Source: a virus
Virus record (IMG/VR): IMGVR_UViG_3300025012_000003
Strand: one strand, 5' to 3'
Length of the DNA stretch: 64,000 nucleotides
This document shows positions 226 to 63,597 of the stretch, in pieces (the stretch's first letter is position 1; each line of letters opens with the position of its first letter). Under the pieces are notes generated by a model, which did not search any database, was not told the origin of the DNA, and saw only the letters and a program-made list of their open reading frames with translations. The position numbers and the translations under genes are program-made.

Positions 226-3200
226 TCATGAAACTAGCTCTATCATTGTTTTTATAGTATCTAACTCTTGAGTTACTATTTCGAAGGGGTTATCACAACA
301 TTTTTTATAAAGTTCATCAAAGTTGGTAGCTTGAAATTGCATACCCCATTCTCTGTAATAGAAGTCATACTCTATGGTATAAACCCCTACACCAAACCTT
401 AGTACTTGACATAGGTGTTTTATTTCTTTATGATATACAAAGAATTTTTCTAACATAATATATTTCCTTAAATAAAATCGCAAGGTGGGGGAATCGAACC
501 CTATACCGTCTTGAGTTTTGGAGACTCCTATTCTACCATTGAACTAACCCTGCATATCTTATATAATATCATACACTATAATTTATTTCAAGTATTTGTT
601 AAGGAATATTAATTATTTTTAATTCACAACAAGTGCATCTTGTTTTTCTACATTCATGACATATTTTTATGAAAGAATTACTTTTTAAAAATTCTTCTCC
701 GCATACTATACATTTAGATTTAGATACACAGGGAAAACCAATTTTTCTAGCACATCTTATACAAAACATTATCCTACTAACTCCTGCATTATTACCACAC
801 TTTGAATTTCCGAAAAATTTTCTATTTCATATAAATCTTGTCTTAAAAAACCAAGGATAAGATTATTTTTCCATTTTTTATAATCTATCTTATAAGCATA
901 TTTAAATAAATTAGATAAATCTGTTCCGATACTAAACATCTGACTTCTATAGGTACTATTATTTTCAGAATACATTAAGATAAAATATCTATCTCTTTTA
1001 AGAATATATTTTTTATCCTTGGATATATTTTTCCCGTCTGATACTTTTTTCATACTATCCCGCAGTTAATTCTATCATTGTTCTTAGTGCTTGTAATTTT
1101 TCTACAACTTTATCAAAATCGTTTGAAATATCATATATAACTTTAGATATCTCGATATCATTTAATTGGGAGATATCCTCTCCCTTATAAAAATCTTTAC
1201 CCATAACAACTTCTACCTTTATAGCATAATCTAATTTAAGTTTATCTTCTTGACCTATGGGAAAGCCGTACCTGATTTCGGACAGATTGGGAAAACATCT
1301 CAAGTCTGGATTGACATTAATAGTATTGATAGTACTTTTTATCTTTTCCCAATTTTTAAAATGGAGTATTCTTAAGGATAAAGGGGTACCCCACGGAAAA
1401 TTACTTGTATCATTTTCAGATAATGTTATAGATAAACTATTTCCCGAATTACTCCATGCTAAAGGGTCATGGAGGATATTGGAGTTTACGACAATGGAGG
1501 GAGGGGAAAGAACTGAAGGGTAATTACGATACTCCACAGAGCAACTAAAAATAGGGGCATACCAATAATAATTGTTTTTCTGAACATTGAATATCTGGAA
1601 TTCTTGTAAATTTTTTAAATCCCCTTCTATAAAAGGAGGAAGCGTAAAATTAATAACTCTATCCCTGTTGTGATATGGAATACATAAAAAATTAGGAATG
1701 TTTTCTTCAAAAGTGTCATGTCCAAAGTCTTTATAGAAATTTAAATAAGTTACTTTATAATAATACACAATTCCAGTATTTTTTAGAGATTCATTATAAA
1801 TATCTATTATTTCTTTTACATCTTCCATAGAGCTATCTTCCTTTCAGAACATTTCTTATTTGTTCTACCGAAGTTATTATATCTTTAATATCAGAAATAC
1901 TCTTTTTGTACAGTTTTAATGATTGTTTTACTACAAACTTTAGGAAGAAATTAGATTTCTCCAATTTTATTAACGATTCTTTTTCTTGTCTCTGTAATAA
2001 TTTTAGTATCAATTGATACATTCTCATCAGTTTATCAATTTTATTTAATAAATCTATCCTGATATGTAATTGAAAAGCATTTTCTTTTTGTTCGTTCACT
2101 AATATTAATAAATCATGAAGGTCTTTCCCTGATTTTTTTATTAAAGTATTAGCTATTTTTATTTTATTCATTCTGATAACTCCTTCATCACTAAAAGGGA
2201 CTCAAACTCTTCTTTATCCTCAAATTCATGTATTCTAAACTCTCTATAGCTAGTAAAACTAGTTAAATTTAATAAAACATTAGAGATTCCAAAACAAGTA
2301 GCACTGTGCCATCCATTGTCTCCTAGACTGTCAACATCAAAAGCTCTAACATACTGGAACTGTTTCCATTTATTCCCTATGGTTAGATGAAAATATTTTT
2401 TATTATGGCAGGTACGGTGGGTTCCCTCTATAACATAGAATTTTCCAGAGTCTAATGTTTTCAAAGTAAATACAGTATCCCTTCGGAGACTGTCTTTTCC
2501 ATTAGGAACCATAGCATATATGGGTAAATCTAATCTCATTAATTTGTCAACTCTTCCATAACTTTATGTTTCTGATAACTTTCTATTAAATATTCCATAA
2601 TTAAAGGTTTATCTTCTCCTTCTAACTTCTCATCTATAATTTTTAATGCCCGATAGAAAACTTTTTCAGCGGTGTTGTGGTCATAGAACATAAATTCTAC
2701 AATTCTATCTATTAGAGAATATTCATTATAGAACTTTTCATAGCATCTCGATTTGATACAATCATTTATTATATAATATTCTTCTGGATTATCTGGTCGT
2801 ATAACACCTAATTCACTATCTAGTATTCCCACAAAACGTTCTCTTATAAAAATAACTTCCATATTCCACAAAGCCATATATTTTAATATGCTATTTATGG
2901 TTTCTCCAAAAGGTTTTATGATATTTAAATTCATCCTACTAGCTCCTCCATACTTTTAACAGCATGGAGTTCATCCAAACTATCAAGTTCATAAACTTTC
3001 TCCTTTGAGAAGTAAGGACGTTTTATATAAGTTAAATAGATATTTATCTCTTGTAATAATTCCCTCTCCCACAAACCGTGGTCAAAGTGGATATTACCAT
3101 AAGGATATCCAGAACTATCTTCTTGATAAAATTTCCACAATTTTTTTTCTTTATCGAATAGGTACCAGTGGTAATTATTTCCAGATTTAAAAAGATAAAT

Positions 3201-6200
3201 CTTATCTTGATATATGCTATTTATTTTAACATGCTTCTCTAATATTATCATGATACAAGTTCCTGCATACTGAAATAAGTATCTAAAAGTCCTACAATTT
3301 CTTCGTCTTCTAAGGGGATTAATAATTTAGCATATAATCTACTATAACCTTCTGAATCTCTATGTTGCAGGTTAAAGGGGAATGAATACTTTAATTCCTT
3401 AGTTTCTTTTTCCAATATACTGATATAGCTAAACACATAATCGGTATTACTTTTTATATATAATATTTCATACTTATAGGTACGATGGAATAGGGCAGTG
3501 ATTATATTTGTTATTTCTAAAATTTCCATAAATTTTAGTTCTAATCTAAGGGGTTCAAATATTTCATATATTTTACATTCGTAGGATGGTTTTACTAATT
3601 TCATATTACTCCTAAAGAAAAAGGAAGAGGTTAGTGAAAAGTAAGGTTAAAGGTCAAGACAGGAAAAACTAACCTCTGTTACGTTAATTGTTAATGTAGA
3701 ATGTTGCTGTAACTATGACATCGAGTATATCGCTGTAGGACAGCATGCCGTTGTCGTGCATTGTTTCTCCTATTATACAAAAATCTTTATTAAAGAAAGC
3801 ATCTGCTATTTTTTCAAATCCACGTATTTTAAGATACTGAACTAAGTCTGATTTTTCTACGTCTTCAGCATATATTTCTAATTCTAATCTTTTAAGGACT
3901 TTATTTATTTTAGTTGTAGTACTCATAATTTTCTCCTTGACTTAACCTTATATAATTATCATAACAGAAAAAGAACTATATTTCAAGTTCTTCGTTAATA
4001 ATTATTAAGATATTGTTACACTTTTCGTAAGGAGTTTTACGATATTTTTACACTTTTCGTAAGGAATCCTATAAAACCACACTATTTCTAGGTCTTATCT
4101 TATATTTTGGTAGATATACTTGTACTTCCTTGCCATTAAGAGTATATTTTACATTAACTTCATTTTCAGAAGGGCTAGAATCACTCACTACCTCTGCATC
4201 GATACCTGTTTTTACCTCTGGAACAGTACTATGCTCGTCTTGTACCATGACCTTCATCCCTTTTTTAAATGTTTCATTTAAAAAATTACATAAATAGATA
4301 GTTTTATTTAATTTCATTGTTTTAGTCTCTAACTAGATAATCTAATTATAATGTAAAATAAAAGTTATCCAGTTAGTTCAGACATTGACCTTCTTATCAA
4401 ATTCTCATTAGATACTCTAATACGTTCTTTTTCTAGGTATTCAGACATTCCTTCTATGGAAACTATTTCCTTCTGAAGATTTATATATAATTGTTTCTCT
4501 TTACCCTCAGAAGTACTTATATCATGGGGAATTCCATTTCCATATACTATATCAACGGCTCTTCCAATCATCCAATATTCAGAAGTGTCATAAAGAAAAC
4601 TTGTTTTGGCATTGACTGGAACAAACCATGAATTTTTAACCTTAGTTCTATATTCTTTCAGTATACTGAAGATGATTTCTATAGCTTTATCTTCATTAAT
4701 CATCATTATCTAATCCATCTTTTAGATTCCAAGCAACTGTACCGTCCTTTTGTTTCATACCAAAAATAAGAGCATGTTTTATTAGTTCCGATACACTACT
4801 CATACCGAGTTCTTTAGCATATAACTTCATTCTTAACATCTCGTCTTTATCAAATCCGTCAAAACTAACCTTAAACAATTTCCCTTTCAGAACCTTTTTG
4901 GCTCTACGTTGTCTTTTGCTTTTTTTCCAAGTTTTCATTTTATCAATTCCTCCATTATTATTTCTAAATATTTTTTATCATCGTAATAGTATTTGTTTAT
5001 ATAATCTACTCCATATCCATAATCCTTTTCCGTCTCTTTGTATACCCCACATTTTTGACATTGGTAGAATACATGGTCATCTGGAGATAAGAAAGGTTTG
5101 CTCATATTTTTTACGATTATCCAGTCATGAAAACAAAATTTCTTTTTAAAGTAATTAATTATTTTATTTTTCATATTTCTCTTTAAGCTTTAAGTATAAT
5201 TTATGCTCTTCCTCATCTCTTTTAATAGCCTCTTTTTCTTTCATCTCCTTTATTCTATCATCTATAATTTTCCTATTTTCTCTAATAATTCTTAACTCTT
5301 CTTCGTATTTATCAGTCAGTTCTTTTTCAAAATCTTCATAGAAAAATCTTATTGGGAAACCTATCATTCTAGTGTCTTCGTCTCCGTCTTGTTGAGTGAG
5401 TTCTACATATTCTTCTATATCATCGACGGGATATAAATCTACACTGACTCTATTGTCATCATTGAACTCAAAGCCATAATCCTGAAAACTCCAATGGTCA
5501 AAATTCTTTTCAGCACAAGCTTTATCCTGCTCAAATTTTCTTTCGGCATTAAGTACCTTATTTCCTATCTCAACAGCCTTCGTTCTAAATCTTTTGAAAC
5601 CTTCTAAAATTTCTTTACTCATGACATTCTCCTAATTTATTAATTCTTTCATTGTATCGTATACTTTCTTCTGGTCTTCTGTAAAATATTCTCTAAGACT
5701 CAATTTTTCAATAAATCCTTTTTCTTTTTCTTCTCTATCCATGCTCATTTTAAAAGCTATATCGGGATTAGTGGTGAAAACTAAGGATAACATAAATCCA
5801 GTTTTTAATTCTTCTATCTTTGTTTGAGCATCTACGTAATCTTTTGTAGCCACATCGCTCCAAGACGTACCGTTTATTGCTTGTACCGCATTTAAATTTA
5901 CGTCGGAGGTGGTGATTACCTGACCCGCTGTAAAACTATAAGGACTATTTAGGGACATTCTTAATTCACCAATTCATTCATTACTAATAATTCATGATAG
6001 TACTCATTTGGATATTTTTCTAGCACTTCCAGTATACCTGTTTTTAATTTTTTGTTATTTAATAATTTTAGCATATCTTCCTTATCAAGTAAAGTATGCA
6101 ATTCTGAAAAAGATTTAAATTGTACTTCGTTTAATAAAACGAATACTAAATGTTGTCCCAAATATTTAATCTGAGAACGAATACATAATTTTCTTCCCGT

Positions 6201-15395: not shown

Positions 15396-18118
15396 TTACT
15401 CCGTTAGTTCTATCAAAGACCTTATTACTTCTATAGATATATCTCTATATTCTTCTGTATTTTTAGGGTTAAAACAATCAGCTACCAAATTTAATACTTT
15501 ATTAAATTTTGAATAGGATTTCTCTCGTGTGTTGTCTATCATGTCTACAGGAATAAATAGTTTAGCAGAAGATTTAAAAGTAAATTCTATGCCAATCCAC
15601 TCACTTTCTGAGTTTTCACTAAATTTACTTATCTTGATAACATATCCAGCTACTTCTTTAGTATCTATTATTCCGTTCCCTATTATATTTATTATCACAG
15701 CACAAGTTCTCTCATCATAGTGTATGTTGTTTTGACTCCTTTACATCTTAAGTATATTTCAAACTTATCATTTATATTAGTTGTAGAGTCATACCTATAT
15801 TTTATAAATCCTACTCCAACACCATAAATAACACTAGAAGTGTGTTGAAGGAATAAAGGTACGTTATTATTTTTCAATACTACTAACACTTTAGAAGCAG
15901 GTTTATTAGCTTGTAGTGTCTTCATCAATTCTCTAGTATCTTTTCCATACTCTATAAGAGTCTTATCTACTCTAGGAATATGTTCTCTAAATAAAACCAT
16001 ATCGAAAGAACTGTTGGCTTCATAGGATATATCTGAATTTTCCACATAAGGATTTATGTAGGTAATAACATTACCCTCCCATATAGCTTCTTCTACCTTT
16101 AAAAATCCTATTAAAGAATCTAATTCTAATCTAAAATTCATCCAATTAGCTCCCACATTGTTAGTCGAGTAGTTAATTCCTCTTCGTTATCAAACTGAAT
16201 GTAAGTAGGATTAATTTTCTTACTTAAATGTATATCGGGTAACATTTTTTGAATCCATTTGTCTTTTTCATTTCTTATAATGACACAATAATCTTTATTA
16301 ACAAATAAGTAAAATTTAGTTTTATCAAACATTAAATCGAAAACACTCATGATACAAGTTCTCTCATAGCTACCAGTTTAATCATGAACTCCCCGTAGCT
16401 TTTAATGTCTTTAAATATTTTTAACTTGCATCCATCTTTTATGTTACTGTTTATAAAATGCTCTGCATCCCAATTATTCATAGTGTTTACTAATTCACAG
16501 TTATGGTCGTAAGCCACGTAACACAGAGAAGTAACATTTTTAATAACATAATATGAATCGTCGTCATATACTACATAAAAATAATTTGGGTTTATATCTT
16601 TTATTTTCCTACTCATATAATCTCCTAATAAAATAGAGTTGTTACCAACTCTGGGGGAAAAAGGGAAAGGGGTTTATTATTTTATTAACTCTTTTATTAC
16701 TCTTTCGTTAGTTATACAATCTTGGTTATGATATCTCTTGCTACTGTACCACATACCCGTTTTTTCTTTAATATTTATACAACTGTTTCCTTTGTCTATC
16801 CATTTTTTACACCCATCACAAACAAAAGATTTTCTACTCTTTTTTACATAAATTACTTGTCTAGCACTCGTATCCATTAAAGTTTTTCTCCGCATAATAT
16901 ACAATGATGATTCATTTGACAAGTGTAGCAAATATTGGTAAATCTTGTTTTGAACTTCTTTTTACAAACTTTGCATTTTACTTCTATGGCTTCTTCCCTC
17001 TTCAAATCTTTCTTTTCGCATTTGTTACACTTCATCTTTATCAAACTTTCTTTTGTTGTACTATAAATATACCACAATTAATTAATTTTTACAAGTATTT
17101 GTAAACTTATTGTTACATTATTCTACTAGTTCTTGCATTGTTTTTCTAATTATATTAAGTTTCTTCATGGTATTATTAGCTTTTCTCTGGAGTCTCGCCC
17201 TATTATACCCAATAAAAGAGATATGTGTTTTATTTTTATCTTTTTTATCCCTCACATACTCTTCCATCTCTCTAATTTTACAAGTAGGAACAAGTCTGGG
17301 GAAATCTTCATCTGTTTTTATTTCTATTCCACTATGGCTTTCTGTAGCTTCCACGGTACATTTAACTCCTACGGAGTACTCTTTGTATTCATCAAGGGTG
17401 AAATATTCAACATAAGCCCTAGATTCTATTTCTTGTTCCATAAATTTATGATTATATTCATCTCTCAATCTATTAGCTTCATAACAAGAAGTAAATATGC
17501 CTACTAATTCGGTAGTTCTGGTAGAGAAACAACCTCCATTATACTTAAGGGAACCATAGTGAACCCACATATTATCAACATCTTCATGAATTAAATATAA
17601 AGTATAAACAACATTATCCATTATTCTACTAGCTCCTGCATTGTTTCATAGTGGGGGAAAGCATCTAAAAATATTTCAGAATGCCATATAATCATACTCA
17701 CTAATTGTTCATATTCTATTTTATTCATGAATTCTTCTTTAGCTTCTTCTAGCATTTCTGCCTTATGTAATGCTCTTGACATTACAGGAGTTAAATTAGA
17801 CTCTGTTTCAAAAACCTTATCAGGAAGTAACTTAAAATTCTTAAAAACATCTTGAGCTATTAGATTAGCCGTGGCTTTAGTAGCTTCTCTTGAAGTAGCC
17901 AGTTTCATTTGTGGATACCCTCCCACAAACCTTGTTCTCATCCTAACTTCAGTATCCCACACACTACGCATAGCCATATCAATAGCCATAACATACTCTG
18001 AAGAATTAGTGGTTTTAACTATAGGTTTAGGAAATTTAATATTATTTTTACCATATAAGTTATTATTGTGAACGTGCCCTAATTTATTTAAGTGCATTCC
18101 AAAAGGCTTTTTACCCAT
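15396..18118 (-). CDS. Array of small ORFs, 7 with the MxEL[VIT]x tail (15396, 15695, 16138, 16347, 16677, 17118, 17621) plus a Zn-finger ORF (16877)
   Basis: ORF track and shared C-termini. Confidence 0.85.
17066..17117 (-). promoter_or_regulatory. sigma70-type promoter with upstream TGTAAA-N6-GTTACA box
   Basis: TTGTAA 17094-17089, 17 bp, TG-TATATT 17071-17066; box 17100-17117. Confidence 0.6.
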
Positions 18119-39111: not shown

Positions 39112-39197
39112 TGGTGCGTTGGGAAGGACTCGAACCTCCAAGTGATTATTAGTCGGGTGGGTTACAGCCACCTGCCATACCGTTAGGCGACCAACGC
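39112..39197 (-). tRNA. trnY: tRNA-Tyr(GTA)
   Basis: GGTGG-CTGTAAC-CCACC, long variable arm, CCA. Confidence 0.9.
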
Positions 39198-39202
39198 ATA
39201 TT

Positions 39203-39272
39203 TGGAGACAGTGGGAATTGAACCCGCTACAACGTCTTTGCAAAAGAAGTCCGCTACCTCAGCGTTATCCCC
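39203..39272 (-). tRNA. trnA: tRNA-Ala(TGC)
   Basis: GGGGATA/TGTCTCC with G3:U70; TTTGCAA loop; short D arm. Confidence 0.8.
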
Positions 39273-39274
39273 AT

Positions 39275-45148: not shown

Positions 45149-48100
45149 TTACTTATATTTATCATATTTAAATGTTAAATTTGATTTCGGCTCGTCATCG
45201 ATTATTTCAGTAAGTTCCCTCATCATGAGAGCTTTAGTTTCCCACTCTTTAAATTGTTCCTCGGTCATTATTTCGTAGTCTTGATGCTCAAGATAAAATT
45301 CTATGAAATAAGATTCTTCATTACATCCCGCTAAATCACTACCTGCAAAGCAAGAGAGTACCTCTCCGTCTTCGTATTTCATAAGATAATGTCCACTATC
45401 AGGACTTGTTAAATATACTTTATTCATGAAACTAATTCCTGCATCATCTTGTATTTATTTAAAATCTCGAAAGCTTCTTTCTGATAATTTAATTCGTATA
45501 TATCCCAAGCACCTTTACAATCTCGATATCCTAAAATGGAATCTTCATATTCAGAAGCATATCTGTGTTTATCATGAGGGTATTCTTTGTCCACAGAAAA
45601 GTCTTCTGATATCTCCCATTCTAACCAAGGATAGTCTCTAAAGAAAGAATCTTTAGTTCTATTAGGAGCATGTAAGTATCCCATAATAAATTCTCTCCCT
45701 CTATCTCCTTCATTGAATTCAAGAGCGAGATAAACTTTCTTAGGATTTATATTCGTTTTTGGAGTAAATTTATTCAACCTACCAACTCTCTTAAGTATCT
45801 TATTCTTTCTACCTCTTCTTTATTTTCTAATAGAGTTACACTATTTACATTAAAGAATTCATTATGGTAATCAGAATCATAAAAGTTATGAACTATTTTA
45901 TAACCACTTCTTATAAATTCTTGTCCCCTTCTATTAGTATATAGATATTTACAATGACGGCTTCTTTTCATAATCTGGTCGATACTTGTAATCTTAATCA
46001 TCTAATCCACCAGTTCCATCATCATTAAAACTCTGGTCATCTCTTCTTTTTCTTCAGGAGAACATTCCCACACATTAGTTATGTATCTGTTATTTATGTG
46101 CATTTTAAGATTAGCTTCGTCCCTTCCTCCTCGACGAGAATGCTCAGAAGGATTCTCAGATACATAAGTAAATTTCCAAATATCAAACAGGGACTTCTCA
46201 GCTTTCTCAAATGTATAATAGCCGATAACTCCATCATCCTCTTTAGAGAAATAAAGCTTATTGTAATCAAATTTATTTATATAATCTATCTTTCTCATTT
46301 AATTACTTTAATTCTTCCAATTCCTTTTTGTACTTTGATTTAATTATAAAAGCAGTTATGGCATAGTAAATAATTGATACTATAGCAAGTGAGATTGTAA
46401 TCTCACACACTGGGAAAGGACTTGCTATAAGAAAAAAAGAAATCCCTATAAGAGTAAATGCCAAGATACAAGATAGTCCACAAGAGTATAATAAAAATTT
46501 AAACATGTTTATCTCCTTTTAATATTTCTAATAATAATAGTTTAGCTCTTTTATTCCATTCGTTAAAGTAGTCATCTCCATAACATTCTATTACAGCTTC
46601 ACAAACTCTTCTATACTCGTTCTCTAAAATCATACCGTCATTAAGAGCAGTTATAAAATACTCTCTCCAATCAATAGAGAAATTATATCTACTTAATTCG
46701 TTCAATGCTAATGACAAGGGAAGACCGTGAGTATGATAAATCTCATACACTTTCCCTCCGCCTATTACAGATTTACCATCTTCTGTTATCTTAATCATTT
46801 AATTTATCAACTCCATCATTACTAATTTTCTATCTATTTCTTCTTGGTCTAGTATGTAATTTTTAACATGTCCAGACTTACATAACTGATTATAAATGTC
46901 TTCCATGCTATAAAATCCAGTGCCTATTTCATGCAGTCCTTTAGGGGTTACAGCATAATGCCTGACTCTACTTCCTTCTTTAACGTAGAGTGAATCAGCC
47001 TCTATTCCTTCCATGTATATTTTTGTTATATCATTCCAACTGTAGAATTTAGCCACTATTCTTCTATTCCTTGGAACAAGTCCATTATCTGTATTTTGTA
47101 ATCTCCCATAGCTTCTATAAGCTTAGGGTCTAAAGTACTTGGAGTATTCTCGTCTATGATGGCATAGAGTTTTACCCAATCCACTCTTAGGTTAGTAGAG
47201 ATGGCTGTTTGTAAAAACACTATAGTAGCTTGAGAGGCTGCTCTGAGATAGTTAAATTCAGTTCCGTTCTCGCATCCCATCATCATATCATAAGACAGGG
47301 CTTTAATTAGGTCTATTACTCCTGCGTAAACTTCTTGTTTATCTGTCATGGTTTTTCTCCATTATCATATTTATGAAATCATAAGGTTTATATAATTTCA
47401 TTATATCAAATGTTCTTTCTTTGTCAAGACTAACTTGTTCTCTTTCTTGTATTGGTCTTGGTTCTATTAATACTTTCATTCAATCAGCTCCTTCATTATC
47501 AGCTCTTTTTCAAATTCTTCTTTTGTTAAGATATCTAAACTAAAATATGTTATGATATTAATTCCTGAATTAAAAGATGTCTATTGACTTCTTCCATCAT
47601 TTCTTCGTAGGAACTAAATTGTTTAACTACCTTATATTTACATACTGTATTTATATGTACATTTTCTGAAATAAGATAACCATCTCTTACTCTTTCTTCA
47701 CTCTGAGTTCTTTCAAATTCATTAGCTTTACCAAATCTAAAAGCATAGGATTTATATGTTTCTTTATACGAGAAAGAACCTCCGACAGGGGATACAAATT
47801 CATCGTTTAGGAAAGGTTGAACTTGTACATAAAAATTAGTCATTGATTAACTCTTCCATAACGTACTTGGATAAAAATATATCTTCTCCTTTACTTAACA
47901 TAGGTTGAAAACGCTCTTTGCAATCTTCGAAAGAATCAAATAAGAGTTTTATAACAGGTTTTGAATTTGTATATAATCTTATCAAATCGTAAAATAAATC
48001 TGACCTGTTAGTATTTATACGCTCCCATCTTTGAGATTTCAAAGTATGAATGTATCGGGGATAAAATCCTATCATACTAAAATCTTCTCTACAAGAATAT

Positions 48101-48996
48101 CTTATAGGCATTAGTCCCGTAAACTTCTTATTAAATACTTCTACGAAATAGCTCATGCTAGAATAGAAGATACTGTTATCTAAGCGTTCTTTTTCTATCA
48201 TAGGTTTTATAGTGAGTTCGTACCAAACATCTTGGAACTTTAACTTCTGTACAAGTAGCTCATGTCTATTCACGATACAAGTTCCTTCATCGATATCAAT
48301 AATAACATTTCTTCTTTTGTAAAATCTTCTGTCTCATCAGTTTCATAATAAACAATAGTAAAATTAATAAACCTGTCTCCTAAGCGTTCCGCTGATGTTA
48401 GAGCCTCTTTCATAAAGTTTTCATTTATTACAAACTGTTCTCCGAAATGGAAAGGTTGGTAAGTTAGTACTTTGTAGCTAAAACCCATATAGGAAGTATC
48501 TCTATTCTCTGGGAAATAGTGAGAACTATAGTAATTAACTTTTATAATTTTAGGTTGTCCAATCATGATACTAATTCCTTCATACAGAAATAAGCAGATA
48601 CCTGTTCTTTAGTAACTTCCATACCTCTTTCTCTTTCATCTAAGGGAAACATGTTCTGAGTAGCAACCCATCTCTTTGTATGATGAGAATACCAGTAAGT
48701 ATTCTTGGTTCCTACTTTATATATCAAAGGTTTATATCCATCTAAATTAGGAGAGTAGTACTTCATACCAACAGTTCCTTAAGCATACAGGGAGCTAAAG
48801 CTTTACCTTCCGATATCTCATTAACAATATAACCTTGTTCTTCCCAATATAATAGAAACTCTTCAGCAGGGTACCAAGATTTCATCCACAAGGGGTTATC
48901 ACAATTATCGTAGAAATGGATAGAACCGTCTTCCGAAATCCTATAGACTTTCAAAAGTTCTTTACTTCTCTTACTAATTACTTCGTAATACTTCAC
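45149..48996 (-). CDS. Array of small ORFs, 9 with a terminal MxEL tail, 1 internal copy, 1 tail-only micro-ORF
   Basis: ORF track and shared C-termini. Confidence 0.85.
46499..46798 (-). CDS. Stand-alone fragment resembling the alanyl-tRNA synthetase helical domain
   Basis: GGKVYEIYHTHGLPLSLAL....NFSIDW versus AlaRS consensus G..AFKLYDTYGFP.DLT......VD. Confidence 0.6.
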   Translation of the reverse strand: MIKITEDGKSVIGGGKVYEIYHTHGLPLSLALNELSRYNFSIDWREYFITALNDGMILENEYRRVCEAVIECYGDDYFNEWNKRAKLLLLEILKGDKHV

Positions 48997-52295: not shown

Positions 52296-55200
52296 TTAAT
52301 CCGTTAATTCCCTAAGCACCTTATACTTATTAAGATGTCTATTTAACCCCTTCATGGTTCTAAACTCATAGATATTCCAGACGGAGCCATCTAAGCTATC
52401 TGCTATATCTTCTATCCAATCCCATAGACTATCATGACTTGTATAATCAGAACCTTTTATAATTAAATCATCCCCTAAGTTATATCTAGTATAGTTACCC
52501 CAACCGTCTGGGTCTGGCTCTCCTACTTCATAAACAAAGAACCTATTATCGTCTTCTGGATTAACAGGAACAGCTAAGTAGAATCTGTCAGGTCTTATAT
52601 TACATACGAGTTTCTTTATTTGTTTCATTCTGTCAACTCATTTATAAATCTATCTACTATGTCTCTTTTTCTTTGTTTACATACGGCTATCATATATCTA
52701 TATATAAACCAAGGAAATATTACAAATACTATTAAAAGAATGTATCTTTCATTCTCATAAATATCAAAGACATCTCTAAATATTAGATAGTCCCAAAGCT
52801 CATTACAAAAAGAAGGAGGAGAGTATATTCTTATAAAAATTATAAATGCTATGAAATTAAAAGTACAATATAATACAAAGATAAGTAGCATTATAAGTAA
52901 TATAGCAAATACTTCTTTCATTAGTTAGTAAGCTCTTTCATTAAATCAGCAGTTATAAACTTAATATTAAATTGTTCTAGGTCTTTAGAACAAGTTATCT
53001 TACCTTCCATAATAGCTTTCTGTATCTTACGTGTATATATTTCAAGATGCACTGGACATAAATCTATGTGTTCCCAGTCTGAAGTATACCTATCATAGTC
53101 CAAAGATTCTCCATGATAAAGTTGTATCTTTCTTACATATTCTATTTCATTACATTTATCACATCGTCTTATACTAACCATATCAGTCTCCTGTTAATTC
53201 TTGAATAAATACCATGTGCTCTACGTCCTCTTTATTCATCATTATTATTTTTATCTCTGTAGACATTTTTCTCTCTTTATCTTTTCCTGCTTTAAAGGCA
53301 TGATGCTTTTTGGAATATATTCTAGTTGTAAGAGGATAGAGAAGGGGTATATCTTTAAAATTAATCTGTTGCCATTTCCATCCCCACGCTCTGTCGACAA
53401 TCCTAGCCAATCTCATATAATAATCATTACCTTGATAACTTGTGTATTTTAAAACAAATACAGCCATATCAATCTCCTGTTAATTCTTTCATAGATAACA
53501 TTGCTCTATATTCTTCCATAGTCATTTTCTCTACCCTATGTGTTACATAGAACCTTATAAAACTATCCCCCAACTTCTCTGCGAAAGATAATGCCTCAGC
53601 CATAAATTCATCATCAGTGCTACCTCCTAGAACAGAATAATGTTCAAATTCTTTCTGAGTAGTAACTCCTCCTATATGATTTAACCAATAGAAGACAGTA
53701 ATTTTGAGAGGTATCTTCATGCTACTAATTCCCACATTGTTCTTACGGTATCTATATCTTCTGTTATTCTAGTTACTATCAGATGAGGATAAACTTCGTT
53801 GTTAAATATTGTAGGTTCGTCTAATTCAAAATCATGAGAGACTCTTCCATCTATCCACAATCCTTTTTCTATATCTCTAGCTAAGACTTCGAGTACGTTA
53901 GGAACTCCTCTGCCTAGCATACCTTTTGTTTGTAAATATCCAGAAGAAGTTTTAATTATGAAAAAGTAAACAGGGTCAGTCTCCGTGTAACTATCAAAAG
54001 CACAAGGGTTCTTAACCATCCATACATCTTCTATTTTAATTACTGTCATGTAGTTAATTCTCTCATCATTAGAAACTTATCAACATTATCTACTATCTCA
54101 ATTACTTTAAGTAGGTCTCTAGCTTTTATATAGGATTCATCCCCCTCTACAGATAGTACCATTCTACCATTCTTCATAACCTTTTTAACTTCAAGTTCTG
54201 TTTTGTTATCGAAGTTACCGTCAGTGTATATACACAAGGACACTATAAAGATATCTCCATGCCAGACATTATCACACATCCAGATACTGGGATGGAAGCC
54301 AGTGTTAGCCTCGATAAGATTCTCTATCTCATGAATATGTTTATATCTCTTATTAGTATTTGCTTTCCCAAAATCTTTATAGGTATCTAAAAGCTTACTG
54401 TGTAGTTGTCTTAACTTCTTGTCATACCAAGGATGTAAGTTTCCTTTCCTATCTGTTACGTAGGTAGGTAACTCTTCTTCTTTCTCTTCGGTTACACTTT
54501 CTCCTATAAATAGATTCTTAATATATTCTATTAAAGAAAAGTGTTCATTACAACAAGGACATTTCAACTTACAAGCTCCCTCATCATTATATACCTATCT
54601 ATCTCTGCTAAGTATTGTTCTTTAGTTCTGTACTCTTTTATTATATCATTATAGAATTTCTCGTGATTAGTTGTATAAGAAGATTGTAATCTATTACCAA
54701 CTACAGTAAGAATCTTTCCTCTCTGTAAATCGTGAGAGTCGTATACAAAAGAATAAGCGAAGGCTCCTTGAATAAATCCCTCAGCTTCCCAATAAATAAA
54801 GGAACACTCGGGGGAATTATAATCAGTGTTAAGACACCGTGATATTTTAAAGTACCTAGTCTTACTCATCATAAGATTAATTCTCTCATTATTTTTCTTT
54901 TATCGGTTTCTTCTTTCATTTGTTCCCAAGTTATCTGTTCTATGATAACTCCTTCTACTCTTTCCCACCAATCTATATCCATGTATCTCCAACAAGAGTC
55001 GTCCCATTTTAAATCTGTAGGATGAAAATCTCTAGGATTAATATGGTTCTCTGTGTATATCTCATCCATGTGTAGGAGACAATCTTTTATATCACCATAC
55101 TCCTTTGGAATATTATAAATTTTATAGTATCTGCTTTCTATAAAAGTTGGCATTATCCTACTAACTCTTTCATCATAACATACTTTTCTATTTCTTGCAA

Positions 55201-58200
55201 GTACTCTTCTTCAGATTTATATTCTTCTAAATAACTATGAACTGTAGTAGTTGTTCCGTAAGCTCCCCGTTCCACGAACTGTACTGCATCTACTGTCTCA
55301 CATCTTTTAGCTATAGTGTTCGTACATTTACAATGAACTCGTCTTTCGAAATCATATACATAAAGTATATCACCAATTATATAAATCATAGAGATACCAC
55401 CAGAACAATGTTTATCTCTCCAAGACATCAGAGGTAATTTGTAATACTGAATCATGATACGAGTTCCTGCATCATTAAATAATTATCAACTTCATAATCT
55501 TCTATCTCGTAGAAAGCATCTGGAAAAAACATAACATCCTTATCTGTAACAAGGTCATGAAATATTAACAGATTCTTATGTACTTCTGCTGAGGAAGCTA
55601 CTCCCCATCTTAAAAACTTTAACACTGTATATTTCTGTATACTGGGGTTGGTGTAATACAGGTAATGTTTTCCTGTTATGCACTTATCAGTTCTCTTTAG
55701 TTGTCTCATCCAACTAGTTCCTCTATCATTAATCTATTTTGGAATTCACCCCAAGTTATTTCTTCAGGTATCAGTTCTTTCTTATCTAACCAATTAGTAA
55801 ACTCAAGCACGGTGTAGAACCTAGTTCTCTGCCATTCTTTATGTTCTACATCCCATACTTGTATCATAGTATCGTTTGGTTTCTTTGTATAATAAATAGT
55901 ATAAAATCTATAATAGATAGTACGGATACTTCCATAGCTATGCAATGAATTAAAATGAACTCTAAAGTATCTAGCAATATTTACCAAGCTAACTCCTTCA
56001 TCATCAATACAGCTTCAAATTCTTCTGTGGGAATTTGTTCTATCTTATATTGAAAAGCTTCAGCTACTCTTATCATCTCCGCTTCATCTACAAAAGAAAC
56101 AGTAGACCAACAATCTTTATAGTTACCATCATAAAAGCTAATAAGATTATTGTCTCTTACTCTGTAGATGTCATCCGTATTATTATCTGTATTTGTAACT
56201 CTGAAATACTTAGTCATGAAATAAGTTCTTCCATTATTAAAGTTGATTTGAATTCATCAGGGGTGATTTCGGTTAGGATATAATTCTCAGGATATCTACG
56301 AGCACAACCTACCACAGCCTCTGCGTTGGGAATTATAGTAGTATCCCACCAGCCTCTCTTCTTATTATATATCTGTGCTTTATCATTGTCAACACATTTA
56401 TAGTAATCTGTTACATTTGTATACTTCTTATAAACTTTAAAGTATCTTGTCATGATACAAGTTCCTTTATCATTCTCTCTGAGAGATATTCCTTCTCGTC
56501 TAAGAGATATATTTTTCTGAACATATACTCATGAAACCTATTAGATATTCTTAGGTCAGCGTTTATTAGATTAGATATATTTGAATGGAAGTTGACATTA
56601 TATAGTAGCTCTAAGAATTGGTCTATCTCTTTCGCACTGGAAGTTCTAAAGTCTATATATACTTTCTTCTGTATGTTGAAAGAACTCGTTATAACCCAGT
56701 ATCTTTTTATACTCCAAAAGAACCATCTTATTATAAAATGATTATGCTTTTTAAATACCGAAAAGATATTAAAGATACTTGATTTATTGTCTACTTCAAT
56801 CATAATACAAGTTCCCTCATAATAGAATATTTATCTATTTCTTGTAAATACTCTTCTTGGGTTTCATACATTTCAACAATAGGAAATTTGAACTCCCTAT
56901 TCAAATTAAGAATATATACATGAAAATTATTATCTTTTATATAAGCCCGAGACTTTCTAGCTTCCCTACGTTGCCCAGGATATCTATGTTCTTTCATTTT
57001 AAAATTGTAACCCGAGTCTCGGTCTCCTTCAAGAGTCATGAAAGAAACTCCACAAGTATTAAATTGTTCATTAGGAAGTCCTTTTATTTTTAAGTATTGT
57101 ATCACGATATTAGTTCCTCCATAGCCAACATTGCCCTATACTCTTCTTCTGTATACCATTTTAATTCAAAGACACTCTTAGGATAATCATCTAATATTTT
57201 ATCTAAAGTACTACCAGTTTTAAACCAAGAGTTCCTATCATAATAAAGATTGCATTCCCAATAATCTTTATTAGTATGGCGGAAAACCATACCTATCTCT
57301 TTCTCATGATAGTTTCTTATTGTTAGATAAGTGTTCACTTAGTTAGTTCCTCCATGAATAAGAACTTATCCAATTCCTCTTCGGAGTCTAATTCCCAGAG
57401 AGACATATCGTGAGACAGGTAATTCCATTTGACAAACCACTTATGTAAATTCATTCGAAGAGTAGAATCCGTAGCTTCAGAAGTATGCCATGTCTTTCTA
57501 TTCCTAGTACTGGTAAGATGCTTGTAGTAGAAGTTACCTATAGGAATAAACACATGTAAGTTCTCCGTAATAAAAGTTTCTCCCAGACATACTAAATATA
57601 TCTTTCCGTACTCAATATTAAATGTATGATGTATGTTACCTAAGTTTCTCAAGTGGTCAACTCCTGCATGAATAAAAAGTTATCGAGTTCTTCTTTAGTT
57701 ACTTCTCTTATACTTAAGAATCTTTTATCGTGTTGAGCATTTCCAAGATACCAATCCGACATTACCCATTCATTAGATTTAATCATTAGCTCTCTCCATC
57801 TATAGTATCTCTTATGAACTCCTATCCTAAAGAATCTATATCTAGGAGTCTTCCTATACCCATCAAATAATGTTATGAAATATTTATATTTCATGAAACT
57901 AATTCCCTCATAGTTTCATATACTGGAATCAATGAAAGGTCTTTCCTGAATCCTCTTCTTAGTAGATTCATTATGAATCTACTAGGATTTTCTAATCTAA
58001 CTTTTATCTTGTCTACTCCTCCAAATGGGTCTGGTATCAAGAAATCATTATCATCATCGAACCAGTCCTCTACCATCCAAGCAGGGGCTACCACATATAA
58101 CCTATCTACTAAGAAGTATTCAATGGGCTTTAGGGGTAGGGGATTCTCAGGGTTAATACAATTTAATAATTCCATATTAAGATAGGGTTCATTGTAGAAT

Positions 58201-61200
58201 AGAACACGAGTATCTTCTTTTGTATATACAATTGATAACTTCATTCAACAAGTTCCTGTAGCATTATAGTTTTCATGGCTTTCTCTTCTGTAATTTTATG
58301 ACCAGCCACTCCGCCTACGGATAAGTTCCACTCTCCATTATACCAGTACTCTAATCTTTTTTCAATACAATCATACCGATATATTAAGGGATTGTAAAAT
58401 TCTTGTGTTGTATAGAAATACCTAAAGGTCATGATACTAGTTCCCTCATGCACCTTAATTTATCATACTCTTCTTTTGTTTCTATTTGATAAACATCATA
58501 TTTATCAAATATACATTTACCATTTTTCTTGAGATAGTAAAGAAGTTCTTTTACCATTTGCCTACCCATTATTCTATAGTATGTTCTTTTCTTATTAAAT
58601 AGATAGAAAACAGGAGGATGGGGAGGAGTTAAACGATTAGATAAATCTTCTTCTTCAATTATTGGTATCATACTATCAACTCCATCATGTATTCCAAGGT
58701 CTCATAATCTTCAGCCTCTGCCAGTACTTCATAACCATATTCAAGAAAATAGTGTTCTGGTTTAAGTTCTAGTCTTCTAGGTAACGTAAGCCAACCATAT
58801 TCTTTCCTGTGGATGTCGTAGTAATAGTTATAGGTACCGTCTCCATTTAGTCCTAGGGTTAATCTACATATAGATATATCTAAGTTATTTTTAACATACT
58901 TATAACTATCCTTAACAAGATAGAATCTCTTTCCAGATTCTTCATAAGCTTTGAGGTTTCCAAAAGAATCTTCTCCTATAAAATGTTTCATGAGATGAGT
59001 TCCTTCATATACTTAAGCTTTGTCTTCTCTTCTTCAGACTCTATCTCGTAGATATCATACAAATCAAAGAACCCAGAATACCCTTTAAGAAACGAGCCGT
59101 CATCATAAGTCAACCTATAGGAAGTCCATTTCATTATCCTCTTCTTATTAGTTATACTTATATAACCATCTTTCTTTCGGATAGTATAATATTGTTTCTT
59201 ATATTTGATATCAGCCTTATTAAATATTTGTATCATACTTCTTTACCTTTTCTATGAAATCTTCTCTCCCGTCCACATCATCTAGCATGAGAGAAGAAAG
59301 TTGATTCCTCTGTTCGGGTGTCATCTTATTGTAGTTGCTCAAACATTGCATTTCAATATCTTTAATCTGTTTTTCAATCTCTAAGATATCGTCTATTAAT
59401 TTGTTAGCTTCATTTTCAAAATTCATGATGTCAACTCCTTCATAGTTAAATAAGTTAAAGTTTCTTCTTCTGTTATAGTTGTTATGATACCTCCGAAAGT
59501 TCCAAAACATCTTATTAAATCTTCTTCATCTACATAGTGAGTACTGAGCCACTTCCCTATTTCAGGAACATAAGCTTCTACTGTTTTAATACCTTCTGGG
59601 TCATATCTAAAATACCTATTTCTACTGGAACTAAAATATTTTATCATGATACTAATTCTACCATAAACATTAACTTTTGGAGATGCTCTAAATTCTTGGC
59701 TCCCGTTATATCATAAATTATTATATTATTTTCTTCATGATATCTTCTTAAGGGAGGTTGACTATGGCTGGAATGTTCTCCACCTTTTAAATAGTTATCG
59801 TAGGCTTTCTTAATACTTTTATCCTCGGGGTATTCAAGATATTTATTCCGCTTATAAGATACTATTTTATACCTGCTAGATTTTGCAAACCTATGTTCAT
59901 ATAAGTATAATTTTTTCATGATACTAATTCTACCATAAATATTTTAGTTTGTCTAGCTACAGTTTCTTTTTCTATTACATCAGCTATAGCCCTAGTGATA
60001 ACTTTGGGAAGACTATCTCTGTGGCTCTGTTCCATTCTCGGACTATAGTATAATCTATCCCAACTACGGACTTCATTGAACAAGTACTCCATAGTATAAG
60101 TACCTTTTCTTCTATCAACAAGTCTTAAGTTACGTACTGCGAGTTCATTACCTTTATTAAATAGATAGTATCTACTTGTCTCAGCTATAAGATTATATTC
60201 GTTTATAACAGTATATTCGTTTGACATAGTTAATACCTTTTCCAATAATCATAAAGTAATATAAACATTCCACATAGTTTACAAAAGAATCTGTAGCTTA
60301 TAGTTATCTCATATATTCTTTTGTTGAATAAAATAAACACCTGTACTATTTGAAAGCAACTAGCATTACTAATTTTAAAATCATATCCTCGGGCATACTT
60401 TATTTTATAATCTTTTAAAGTCATTCTCTGTATGAATTCAGCAGACTCAGATTGCCCTTCTGGAAATAATTTCCCTGTATGGAAATTAATGAATCCTAAT
60501 TTAATAAAGAAAATATCTTTATATGTATAGTATTCCAATATGTTTTTAATTAATACTTTCATATCATTCCTAACTAACTTTAGATAAGTATCTTATATGG
60601 AACTTCTGGATGTTATATCCTCCAGCATAGATAGCTTGAGTTACCAGAGTTCTTTCTAATCCAAAAGGTTTCTTAATCTTAAATGTTCCTACCAAGTTTC
60701 CTTTACTTAATGCTATGTCAACGGTTTGTACTTCGTTTATTTCTACACCATCGAAATGTTTAAGAGTGGACTGGAGTAACTTGTATCTTGAATTAAGTAT
60801 TGATTCGGTAACAGTCATGTCAATGAATCTATCAAGTTGTTTTCTGTTATGTGCTTCTATTAATTCTTTGTTAGGTTCTCCGTAGTAACCATGAGTTCTT
60901 TTTCCGTCATGCTTCTTTATACCTAATTGTTGTAAAGTATACCAACATGATTTATAGAACTCTTTATTAAAATGACTTACTTTTAATTGTAGCAATTGAA
61001 AATCATGTGGGGAATAATACTCAGAAGTATTTAAGAACTCTCTGTACTTTAATTCCCAATAAGCTTTTATGTCTTGAGCCATCTCATCTTCTTTAACTTT
61101 AAAAGAAGAAGTCATCTTTTCGATAAGCTCTTCGTTCAATTGTTTCTTAGTCTTATCTATTTTATTAGAAAGCTTTTCGTTATTTCTTCTTATATCATCT

Positions 61201-63597
61201 AACATAATAAACTCCTATTGCTTAACCTCATAATATAAATATATCATGAATGCAGTAAGAGTTCAAGTGTGTTAAACAATCTTTGTTACATTAGTTTACA
61301 AGTTCGTGCATAGTAAGTATTCTAGTAACTTCATCCTCGTCTGTTATTATTTTAAGACCTACAGGAAATTCATCTATTATATTTTCTAATGTCTTTCCCA
61401 TAGTATGTATGGGACATAAGTATTCTTTACTATCCCCCGTCAAATATCTATAATGGATATTATCTTCTCCATAAAAATACACACGGGAAAGAGCGGGGTT
61501 ATAAGGAATATCTACTATAAGTCTCTTTAGCATTTAACTTACTAACTCCTTAAGAACAAGAGCACTATTAAATTCTTCTTCTGATAATTCTTGTACTATG
61601 TTTAACTTTTTATACAAATCCTGTATGTCATCACAGAAAGCTCCAATGTGCCTATCATAGTATTGAAATAAAACATATCCTCTAGGAACAGCTAACTGAT
61701 GAGGACAGAACTTAACATACTCAAAAAGATTAGAGGGTGTTACAACCTTAAAGTATCTGGGTTTAGTGTATTCAAGATACAAATTCCTCATCCTTTTATT
61801 CTTTCCGCCAGTTCTATTATCTCTTTGTTGAATTCATTCTTACATTCTCCAGAACAGATGTGGAGTTTAGCTTTACTTATCCGAAAAGTTATCCAGTCGT
61901 TATCTCTAATAGCATCTATTATATCTTGAGGGCATGGCTCATGAGGAGTCTCTATATGTTTACCGCACTGGTCGCAATAGATTCTGTATAGGTATTCATC
62001 GTCGTCAAAAACTATCATAAGTAATAACCTCCTTAGTCTCTAAATCAAAAACAAAGTATTCCAACGAGAATAAAGTAAAATCAGAAACTGGAGATTTATC
62101 TATAAATCTTATAGCGTAAGATACTTGCCTAATAAATCTTTTTAATGATTTCCCTGTATGAACATGATTCCTAGATGTTGGAAATATAGTTCCAACATAG
62201 TATAAATTATCTTCCACTATATCTTCATCATAATAAAGCCTGTTCATTTATATCTGCTCCATCTTCTTCAGGTTCTCGTCAGACTGTCTCTTGTCTTTAA
62301 GTCCAGTTCCTATAAACACTTGTGCTCCGTAGGTTTCATCGTAACCTATGAATAGTAATTCTCTTTTCTTTAAGTCTTCTTGTTTTGACATTAGTTTATT
62401 AACTCCTTCATGCACTTGTATATTTCTGCTTCTTCCTGCGTAGCCTTCTGGAATTCCTTTCCATTCTTTTGGATACCGTAATCTAACAGGTCTCTTAGTC
62501 CCGCTTCTGATACATCACTCCACATAGTAACAGAGAATCCATTGAAGTAAAATTGTTTCTTAGTAGCTACATCTCTTATAGTCCATGCTCCTCTTCGACA
62601 TTCGTGGAATGTCTCGTCATAATAAACTTCTACTATACTATCGTTAATCTTATAGTACATTAGTTTAATAGCTCCTGTAGCATTAGGATTGAATCTATCT
62701 TATCTTCTGAGTTCAACATTCCTCTTACTTCCTCAGTAATATTTTCGTCCTTTAGAAACTTCTCCAGTGTATCATAGTAATAGAATTGTAATTCTTTAAA
62801 AAGACTGCTTCTTATCCTAGAGATTATGAACGGATGATTCTTTGTATCAGTTTCCGAATAGCCGTAGTAATCAGAATCATATTCATCTACTATATCAAAG
62901 CTTCCTCTACTAAATTTTATTTTCCATTTATTCTTACCTCTCCAGTAAGGGTCATGATACTTAGATACTACAAACTCTTCATTAGTATCATGTAGTTCTT
63001 TAATCTTATTGTAGCATATTATTACTAAAGCATCAAGTAGTTTGTAACTAAATCTTATCTTATCGGCTTCTTCTTTTATTAACTCAGGATTATCAATTGC
63101 ATCTTTAAGCATACCTCGTAGAGAACTGTGGCTCCTACAGTTCTCTTCTATTAAAAGTATGTCGGCTATTACTTCTGAGTTAGTGTAATCCATTAGTTTA
63201 CAAGTTCTTCCATAACTTTAGGTGCGTTCATTATACTATCAACTTCTTCTCTTCTACGAGAACAATCAAAACATCCTACGTAAGTTATTCTACAGTAGAC
63301 TTTAACTATAGCTGTAACAACTCCGTCTATGTTTTCGTATGTTAGTACATTGCTTGTACTAGCTTGGTCGTATTCTATATTAACACAAGCATAACCAGCA
63401 CTGAAATCTTTAACGTGGTTTCTTAACTCTTCATTCTGTAAACTGGAATGGTAGTAAACATTCTCCACTACTAAATCTCTAAAGGTAATTTCATTATCTG
63501 TCTTAGCAATACATTGTACTGAAGTTCCTCTTGCGGGAATGCGTTCTCTCTTTTTTCTAGTCGTCATACTTTTACCAGAACCTTTTATAGCAATCAT
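52296..63597 (-). CDS. Densest array of small ORFs: 32 end in the MxEL[VIT]x tail
   Basis: ORF track; near-continuous run 52296-60245 plus 61291, 61534, 62391, 62660, 63193. Confidence 0.85.
60570..61205 (-). CDS. Conserved-looking phage hypothetical protein
   Basis: 211 aa; C-terminal TQAIYAGGYNIQKFHIRYL; own promoter cassette. Confidence 0.6.
   Translation of the reverse strand: MLDDIRRNNEKLSNKIDKTKKQLNEELIEKMTSSFKVKEDEMAQDIKAYWELKYREFLNTSEYYSPHDFQLLQLKVSHFNKEFYKSCWYTLQQLGIKKHDGKRTHGYYGEPNKELIEAHNRKQLDRFIDMTVTESILNSRYKLLQSTLKHFDGVEINEVQTVDIALSKGNLVGTFKIKKPFGLERTLVTQAIYAGGYNIQKFHIRYLSKVS
61210..61292 (-). promoter_or_regulatory. sigma70 promoter with conserved leader and TTGTTACA box
   Basis: TTGAAC 61266-61261, 17 bp, TATATT; leader GAGGTTAAGCAATAGGAG. 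Confidence 0.6.

Follow-up and report, generated by a model that had tools for sequence, protein, structure and literature searches.

A conserved C-terminal ending on more than a quarter of the genes of an uncultured T4-related myovirus looks like the end of one diverged small-protein family

The small-gene region and its shared protein ending

The stretch of viral DNA considered here (the window, 64,000 nucleotides) corresponds to bases 31994-95993 of the IMG/VR virus record IMGVR_UViG_3300025012_000003, a sequence of 190,151 bp and ~31% G+C that is called G000 below. Its genes lie almost all on the minus strand, and a large share of the small proteins that they encode finish with the same few residues, M-x-E-L-[VIT]-x, directly before the stop codon. 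This C-terminal ending, together with the longer module of which it forms the last part, is the subject of the present analysis. Gene products of G000 also include the large terminase, the tail sheath, the head maturation protease and the major head protein, along with helicases and a DNA polymerase of the family-B type. T4-related Rhizobium phages have major head proteins ~36% identical to that of G000, which also finds matches in hundreds of records of T4-like cyanophages; by these matches G000 is an uncultured myovirus, a distant relative of T4. At the nucleotide level, 5 kb of the window gave no megablast match among 50,697 phage records, and a search of bacterial genomes for a relative of the GroES-like gene, made for host inference, found none.

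Open reading frames (ORFs) of at least 40 amino acids (aa) were called and a greedy non-overlapping set was retained, and a carrier was defined as a minus-strand ORF ending [MILFV]-x-E-L-[VITSAL]-x(0-3)-stop. By this definition 81 of the 167 minus-strand ORFs of the window are carriers. Genome-wide the figure is 99 of 351, or more than 25% of the genes, nearly all of them within 0-100 kb, the small-gene region, and 85 of the 99 are 67-134 aa long. None of the structural and replication genes of G000 carries the ending. A first-pass annotation, made from the letters of the window alone, had drawn attention to the shared ending and put the number of bearers at about 85; its own pattern returns 78 window ORFs, the first starting at 226 and the last ending at 63597, and the observation stands.

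Chance is excluded as the source of the shared ending by both the frequency of the motif and its placement. Composition predicts 2.0 copies of the string M-x-E-L-[VIT] in the minus-strand proteins, but 79 are present, 68 of them no more than three residues from the C-terminus, and a 20-column weight matrix scores at least 8 bits in 85 of 492 minus-strand stop-to-stop frames and in none of 867 plus-strand frames. The small genes are called early from their position in the genome, because a scan for sigma-70 promoters and terminators gave counts that were not above those of shuffled sequence. The carriers and carrier arrays to which the text returns are the following, in window coordinates.

226-63597, minus strand: span holding the 81 carriers among 167 minus-strand ORFs
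2931-3251, minus strand: 106-aa carrier ending VYELDSLDELHAVKSMEELVG, with two homologues only among 5.8 billion proteins
15396-18118, minus strand: carrier array with two larger members of 165 and 167 aa, neither with a PHROG match; the carrier at 17118 precedes intergenic DNA
24438-27750, minus strand: carrier array that includes the operon-terminal carriers 24438, 25602 and 26991, each followed by intergenic DNA
27959-28240, minus strand: example of an internal motif, ...RRMMNELTQDES, followed by 13 further residues
33224-33460, minus strand: 78-aa carrier with a predicted structure
45424-48996, minus strand: carrier array with members of small within-genome paralogue clusters
52296-60245, minus strand: densest carrier array, in which nearly all genes end M-x-E-L-[VIT]-x, most with an ATGA or TAATG stop/start overlap
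53183-53735, minus strand: two carriers ending ...QELTGD and ...KELTGD
59644-60245, minus strand: two carriers (59644 and 59916) ending M-V-E-L-V-S

The ending is the last part of a longer module. Information content exceeds background from -15 to +3 around the invariant Glu (position 0), and the consensus runs h-h-[TS]-x-[ED]-E-h-x-[KSRT]-h-h-[MTVS]-M-x-E-L-[VIT]-[SGN]-stop, a sequence that suggests a short strand followed by a helix-capping box (S/T-x-x-E) and then ~15 residues of helix. The 13 columns upstream of the core are enough on their own to split carriers from non-carriers (leave-one-out mean 3.8 vs -11.5 bits, p = 2e-30), so the helix-cap or acidic block that the first-pass annotation described ahead of the motif is real. 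The Glu and Leu of the core are invariant among carriers. Of the 30 carriers whose stop codon is free of an overlapping start, 21 still have the motif one residue from the C-terminus.

Nine small proteins of the early region hold M-x-E-L-[VIT] internally and continue for 4-54 residues, in an extension that usually starts acidic or polar; they lie at window 27747-28240, 31628-31855, 33961-34702, 45149-45427 and elsewhere. They may be carriers that have lost their stop codon or have been fused to downstream sequence.

Constraint on the protein and on the nucleotides

Most carriers are followed by a gene whose start codon overlaps their stop, and in such places the same codons can serve the ribosome-binding site of the next gene. 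Were the amino-acid motif a by-product of a Shine-Dalgarno sequence (SD) joined to an ATGA overlap, its synonymous sites should be constrained and it should occur only with overlapping starts; neither was found. The codons of the motif vary synonymously, as had been noticed in the first pass. GAA makes up 64% of the invariant Glu codons against 73.5% genome-wide, and the invariant Leu uses all six of its codons in genomic proportions (p = 0.18).

The same conclusion is reached by comparison with a relative, IMGVR_UViG_3300025154_000049 (G001; 158.5 kb), which has 101 carriers and aligns collinearly with G000, with ~85% of nucleotides identical. Reciprocal-best orthologues are present in G001 for 85 of the 99 G000 carriers, and the tail is kept in 85 of 85. 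Over these pairs, for which synonymous divergence (dS) is ~0.58, the Glu codon shows 19 synonymous and no non-synonymous differences and the Leu codon 33 and none. Synonymous divergence at single codons (pS) reaches 0.67 for Glu and 0.50 for Leu against an average of ~0.40; it falls to 0.27 and 0.16 at the last two codons, and synonymous change is also reduced at the codon before Glu. The ratio of non-synonymous to synonymous divergence (dN/dS), 0.19 over the bodies and 0.15 over the tails, marks the carriers as real, constrained genes.

A trace of the ribosome-binding site is nevertheless written over the ending in the expected context. A G at the third base of the pre-Glu codon yields GGAG or GGAA 8 nucleotides (nt) before the next ATG, and such a G is found in 44 of 69 carriers with an overlapping start, in 4 of 19 with a gap of more than 25 nt and in none of 11 with a gap of 1-25 nt. 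M-x-E-L is retained in all three spacing groups. In all, 30 of the 99 carriers lack an overlapping next start, which bears out the earlier claim that the motif persists ahead of intergenic DNA. The copies said to have no SD do lack one: the carriers 59644 and 59916 finish ATG GTA GAA TTA GTA TCA TGA, with no SD-like run despite an overlapping next start. Likewise, at 53183 and 53469 the AGGAG of the next gene falls in the added T-G-D codons, as had been reported, and E-L is kept, in codons that form no SD (AAA or CAA, then GAA TTA).

Overlap is in turn no guarantee of the motif. Carriers account for 68 of 117 early-region genes with an overlapping start, 19 of 73 with a gap of more than 25 nt and 11 of 53 with a gap of 1-25 nt; among late genes with overlapping starts the tail occurs in only 1 of 26. 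Overlapping-start genes without the motif number 49 in the early region and 25 in the late region. Codon usage, the differences between orthologues, the dependence of the SD on context, and the early and late overlapping genes that lack the motif lead us to reject a model based on the SD alone and support constraint on the ending at the protein level, rather than its origin as a by-product of SD and ATGA overlap.

Bodies of the carriers

Outside the tail the carriers share a composition. Tyr makes up 8.7% of carrier bodies and 5.8% of non-carriers (p = 1e-7), Trp 2.0% and 0.9%, and 80% of carrier bodies have a beta propensity above their alpha propensity, as opposed to 43% of non-carriers of the same size range and region. 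An N-terminal motif, [RKQTN]-Y-[FYL]-[KRTYEQ]-[VILT] (for instance MTRYFKV), begins 14 of 95 carriers and none of 124 non-carriers, always within 25 residues of the N-terminus; its bearers lie at window 52296-62000 and elsewhere. Membrane-like proteins are rarer among carriers (3) than among non-carriers (17), as are proteins with at least two CxxC motifs (2 and 10, respectively).

Several genes of the array at 52296-60245 (minus strand) also begin with an R-Y-F-K-V-like strand motif.

No known family was recognised in the carriers that were searched: ten had no match in Pfam, and the ten largest of the window had none among PHROGs. Non-carriers from that part of the genome do include recognisable proteins, an RNA ligase and a GIY-YIG endonuclease among them. 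The first-pass annotation had proposed that recognisable enzymes and chaperones lack the tail; this holds for the ABC-GNAT protein, which ends ...NPTKI and is the sole enzyme checked of those it named. A profile search with one carrier family against 1.84 billion proteins returned the family itself, one relative ending TMRELIS and one repetitive false positive, and feature searches of the ESM Atlas with two carriers gave scores of only 0.81-0.84 and turned up no stored structure models. No description of the family or the motif was found in the literature searched.

Predicted structure

A structure was predicted with AlphaFold2 for the 78-aa carrier at 33224-33460, from five sequences (pLDDT 84.6, pTM 0.74). 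The model has strands at residues 5-9, 16-20, 25-30, 35-41 and 55-58 and a helix at 60-77. The module forms the fifth and last strand and the C-terminal helix of a compact beta-meander domain, with no linker between them and the rest. The last two 10-residue blocks have pLDDT values of 95 and 88, and the helix runs to the final residue. At the other end of the chain, the N-terminal RYFKS is strand 1. The 106-aa carrier at 2931-3251, unrelated in sequence, gave the same order of elements with one inserted helix, at low confidence (pLDDT 50).

No fold could be assigned to the 33224 model, and no significant match was found among solved structures. The best Foldseek hit in the PDB was an immunity protein of the type VI effector Tas1 (6ox6_B), at E = 0.45, and a wide structural search of the PDB reached Z = 4.8 at best. 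Against BFVD the model found small uncharacterised phage proteins (TM 0.5-0.65, E of at least 0.06), and against the ESM Atlas TM values of 0.6-0.68.

A second lineage with its own version of the ending

A search with the capsid protein led to a further record, IMGVR_UViG_3300025436_000002 (G002; 170 kb, 34% G+C), whose major capsid protein is 74% identical to that of G000. At least 64 G002 genes end [IV]-T-D-x-K-E-[IV]-[ND]-K-[YF]-L-M-[TMIV]-x-E-L-L-[KR]-stop, and between 89 and 133 kb the ending is present on 61 of 117 genes. It is in the same register as the G000 module and more uniform, and it closes with L-[KR] instead of [VIT]-[SGN]. Carriers of G002 often start [RK]-x-Y-[VI]-A-[LI].

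The overlay of protein and ribosome-binding constraint recurs in G002. The pre-Glu G is found in 39 of 43 carriers with overlapping starts and in 9 of 21 elsewhere; with overlap, Glu is GAG in 77% and the preceding base is G in 91%. The last residue is K or R in 41 of 43 genes with overlap and in 20 of 21 without, written as AAA, AAG, AGA, AGG or CGA. Genes without overlap keep Met at its position in 20 of 21 cases, and K or R ten residues from the end in 20 of 21.

Among 91 reciprocal best hits between G000 and G002, only gene 185006 (G000 coordinates) fits either tail pattern in both genomes. The sequences leave two possibilities for the carrier sets of the two lineages, either complete turnover or divergence beyond detection. 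Turnover is visible at shorter range: 13-16 carriers are specific to each of G000 and G001 (13-16% of carriers), with the same tail on them. Breaks of synteny between these two genomes (genome 13.5-100 kb) cluster within ~20 nt of stop/start junctions, so whole genes are gained and lost as cassettes bounded by the tail and the start codon. Small within-genome clusters of paralogous carriers are also present.

The high-coordinate ends of G000/G001 matches often reach 0-30 nt into the tail codons of the upstream gene.

The clade appears to be small. A DNA pattern for the G002-type tail, run over 2.9 million viral contigs, had multiple matches only in the G002 lineage, and the six single matches in other contigs were accompanied by no tail-bearing ORFs. 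Capsid-protein searches for further lineages found only these two.

One diverged family or a shared label

The ending has more the look of a conserved family terminus than of a portable tag placed on unrelated proteins. The reading that we favour, to which we would give about an even chance, is that it is the conserved C-terminal element of one very large, hyper-diverged family of small proteins. The integrated module, the shared composition, the subset with an N-terminal motif and the lack of known families together point toward one paralogous fold. The first-pass annotation had named such a fold as an outcome that would tell against its own idea of a label, and the evidence leans in that direction, with one good model behind it. 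We infer that all carriers share the 33224 fold.

Such a family would consist of small cytosolic alpha+beta proteins, mostly 67-134 aa long and present at ~100 copies per genome, and would be very old, fast-diverging and restricted to a small group of related T4-like myoviruses. In every member an aromatic-rich beta-meander would be closed by the strand and helix of the module, and the conserved element itself would comprise a beta-strand, a T/S-x-E-E helix cap and a helix of ~15 residues ending M-x-E-L-[VIT]-x. The bodies would have diverged past sequence recognition, with the C-terminal element held under strong purifying selection at the protein level. The SD of the next gene would be a second, weaker layer on the same codons, present only where the next start overlaps the stop and acting on the third base of the pre-Glu codon, on the choice of GAG and on the last two codons. 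In the folded protein the hydrophobic side of the helix (M, L, V/I) would probably pack on the sheet. The Glu-Leu near the free C-terminus would be a family-wide site, most likely for contact with one shared partner, and the variable sheet may give each member a target of its own. The genes would turn over cassette by cassette at gene junctions.

Several observations weigh against a single family. Similarity of sequence or profile outside the tail, which a single family would lead one to expect, was not found: 198 tail-trimmed carriers of G000 and G001 fell by BLASTP and phmmer into ~110 clusters that are essentially orthologue pairs, and the 64 carriers of G002 fell into 52-57. A body-only hidden Markov model seeded with the 14 carriers that have the N-terminal motif recovered only its seeds and their orthologues, and the highest probability among 350 hhalign profile pairs was 6.4%. 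Some carriers are long, at 145-371 aa. The common fold is read from one confident model, one poor model and composition statistics, and the burial of M, L and V is presumed. Moreover, the invariance of Glu and Leu and their fixed C-terminal position (in the 21 of 30 carriers cited above) exceed the usual demands of fold maintenance, and we therefore think a contact site common to the whole family likely.

That site may be taken one step further. The ~100 carriers could be variable small binders whose constant C-terminal helix plugs, through Glu-Leu, into a single hub, and which deliver or inhibit different host targets. That hub might be the phage MoxR AAA+ protein with its vWA-metallopeptidase (described below), whose MIDAS could take the Glu, or else a protease or some other machine of the host. 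This repertoire is a speculative proposal, and we think it unlikely to be correct as it stands. If true, it would give bacteriophages an equivalent of the F-box/PRANC adaptor families, and the switch from [VIT]-[SGN] to L-[KR] would reflect co-evolution with the pocket of the hub. The lineage difference in the last two residues does fit co-evolution with a partner, and birth and death of members could also give it.

The explanation advanced in the first pass was a portable, linear C-terminal address label on unrelated early proteins, read by one phage or host partner. Candidate readers would be a protease, for which the tail would be a degron, a hub (a clamp, for instance, or a MoxR-vWA machine), or a receptor for packaging or for a compartment. 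We regard this as possible and somewhat improbable. A label would suit bodies that are unrelated by every sequence test, a Glu-Leu invariant at a fixed distance from the free C-terminus, and an ending that is retained without start overlap and with varied codons; it would also suit the carriers that are specific to each close genome and yet have the same tail, the concerted difference in endings between lineages ([VIT]-[SGN] in G000 and G001, L-[KR] in G002), and the keeping of MoxR AAA+ and metallopeptidase-vWA genes in both. However, the strand of the module joins the sheet in the confident model with no linker, the bodies form one compositional class, and the tail is on none of the recognisable domains, 0 of 20 tested carriers having a Pfam or PHROG family. 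No reader was found, the phage DNA polymerase lacks the motif at its end, and the concerted lineage difference could stem from birth and death of members. The pairing of MoxR with a vWA-peptidase is, moreover, widespread in T4-like jumbo phages (PMC7824862) and not specific to the G000/G002 clade. Of the two halves of the first-pass proposal, constraint at the protein level is upheld; that the carriers are unrelated bearers of a portable label is not established, given a module built into the fold and a shared composition.

Two other explanations place the cause at the junction with the next gene. The nascent C-terminal peptide might tune termination and re-initiation at the overlapping next start, the motif being selected for the efficiency of coupling. 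The enrichment of carriers among early genes with overlapping starts (68 of 117, as given above) and the fixed distance of the motif from the stop would agree with this, but the 30 carriers without an overlapping start keep the motif, the 49 early and 25 late overlapping genes do without it, and the conserved part spans 20 residues, with a helix-cap signature and a regular helix in the model. We know of no precedent for such a mechanism and consider it highly improbable. Conservation at the nucleotide level, whether of SD, spacer and ATGA or of a recombination-linker junction for cassette shuffling, would reduce the amino-acid motif to a by-product. This is largely refuted and strikes us as barely tenable: the synonymous sites of Glu and Leu diverge at or above the average with no amino-acid change in 85 pairs, their codon choice is near genomic proportions, the motif persists without SD and without overlap, the upstream 13 residues lie outside any ribosome-binding site, and late genes with the same overlaps lack the motif. 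What speaks for it is the GGAG or GGAA that many copies have 8 nt ahead of the overlapping ATG, the enrichment of GAG and of a preceding G with overlapping starts, strongest in G002, the lower synonymous divergence at the last two codons, and the synteny breakpoints at junctions.

In this 190-kb phage more than 25% of genes, and in its relatives a comparable fraction, form one class, for which the searches above found no homologues elsewhere and in which only the C-terminal helix is constant, and strictly conserved. Should that helix be a common contact, it would offer one biochemical handle on ~100 early-region genes of unknown function, and the variable bodies would form a natural library of binders. 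If it is a fold element only, the carriers display extreme sequence divergence within one small fold. The case carries a caution as well, since a tail common to seemingly unrelated proteins may be all that can still be recognised of a family, and it shows that an SD overlay and a protein motif on the same codons can still be separated. Shared C-terminal peptides read by one partner and expanded families of small phage genes are both known principles; what stands out here is the scale (more than 25% of genes), the clean split between protein and ribosome-binding-site constraint, and the lineage-specific consensus.

Relation to known systems

The T4 proteins gp43, gp33 and gp55 have C-terminal clamp-binding peptides, short, hydrophobic and acidic, that dock on one hub. 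The present case is similar in that different proteins of a T4-type phage share a C-terminal ending. Unlike the clamp peptides, which belong to a handful of known replication and transcription proteins, the ending is found on ~100 proteins of unknown family and extends over a 20-residue strand and helix predicted to be part of the fold. The DNA polymerase of G000 (PHROG 17), on which a T4-type clamp peptide would be expected, ends ...WEDENRTRLIPKRHS (...RLIPKRHS) and lacks the motif, which argues against a T4-style clamp peptide.

Degrons of the ssrA type, recognised by ClpXP, resemble the tails in their extreme C-terminal position and in a hydrophobic residue followed by a small one. The likeness between the end of the tmRNA tag, ...KMALVA, and the L-V-[SGN] of the tails covers three residues only. 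The invariant Glu and long helix of the tails have no counterpart in ssrA degrons, and the tails of G002 end L-L-K.

The nearest functional analogy to the single-hub proposal lies in poxviruses, whose ankyrin-repeat proteins with a C-terminal PRANC/F-box-like motif have recognisable repeats and a known partner, Skp1. This large virus-encoded family combines a variable N-terminal part, which does the binding, with a constant C-terminal helix by which its members plug into a single machine of the host. Unlike this eukaryotic family, the phage carriers have no repeats and no sequence relation, and no partner was found for them. Short amphipathic helices or peptides at a terminus also address diverse cargo to a shell, as in microcompartment encapsulation peptides, encapsulin cargo-loading peptides and the T4 capsid-targeting sequence. 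The tails share with these a helix at a terminus. Those peptides, however, hang by flexible linkers on known enzymes, whereas the helix here is, by prediction, built into the fold, and its bearers are encoded among the small genes and not among the virion genes.

An SD within the upstream gene, joined to an ATGA or TAATG stop-start overlap, is a known arrangement for translational coupling. It is present in these genomes as a real overlay, with GGAG or GGAA 8 nt before the overlapping ATG and the bias to G before Glu. It covers at most ~6 nt and the last codons, which leaves unexplained the Leu, the Met, the 13 residues farther upstream and every copy that lacks an SD or an overlap.

Candidate partners and neighbouring features

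The phage genes that come into question as partners, and the RNA genes of the window, are the following.

Genome 181801-182961 (outside the window): MoxR-type AAA+ ATPase (Pfam AAA_3), ~50% identical to its G002 counterpart
Genome 183081-184481 (outside the window, adjoining the MoxR gene): DUF2201 metallopeptidase-vWA protein, ~50% identical to its G002 counterpart
Window 39302-39503, minus strand: circularly permuted transfer-messenger RNA (tmRNA; Rfam RF04321, 98 bits)
Window 38067-39273: tRNA array beside the tmRNA (sixteen tRNA genes)
Window 478-554: tRNA-Trp

The MoxR AAA+ protein and the metallopeptidase-vWA protein are candidate readers of the tail, and are to be taken as leads only. 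Pairs of this kind in T4-like jumbo phages have been given a proposed role in virion assembly (PMC7824862), and vWA MIDAS sites are reported to bind extended peptides (PMC7159879). Immediately upstream of the pair in G000 are two tail-like ends, at 184572 (...MMLELTDNI) and 185006 (...AFYELIS); the G002 orthologue of the latter ends ...MMIKEMSR. An attempt to identify gene 185006 as gp33-like failed, with no match in the PDB or Pfam.

The tag that ARAGORN reads from the permuted tmRNA is GNNTVSLDFGRKMALVA, and the same tag is found in G001; no tmRNA was detected in G002.

The operon-terminal carriers 17118 and 61291 (minus strand), and G002 103017, have the same TAATGTAACAA... directly past the stop, an element thus common to the two lineages. 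An inverted repeat (TTTACAA...TTGTAAA) comes after it at 17118. The element may be a terminator or a processing site.

Among the small genes but outside the window, at genome 14658-15425, lies a GIY-YIG/NUMOD3 homing-endonuclease-like gene, absent from G001 and with a 38%-identical counterpart in G002. In the late region, some N-termini have a basic leader ending in Glu that resembles the T4 capsid-targeting sequence, for example MSIKRIKKIIEE... and MFKKILK....

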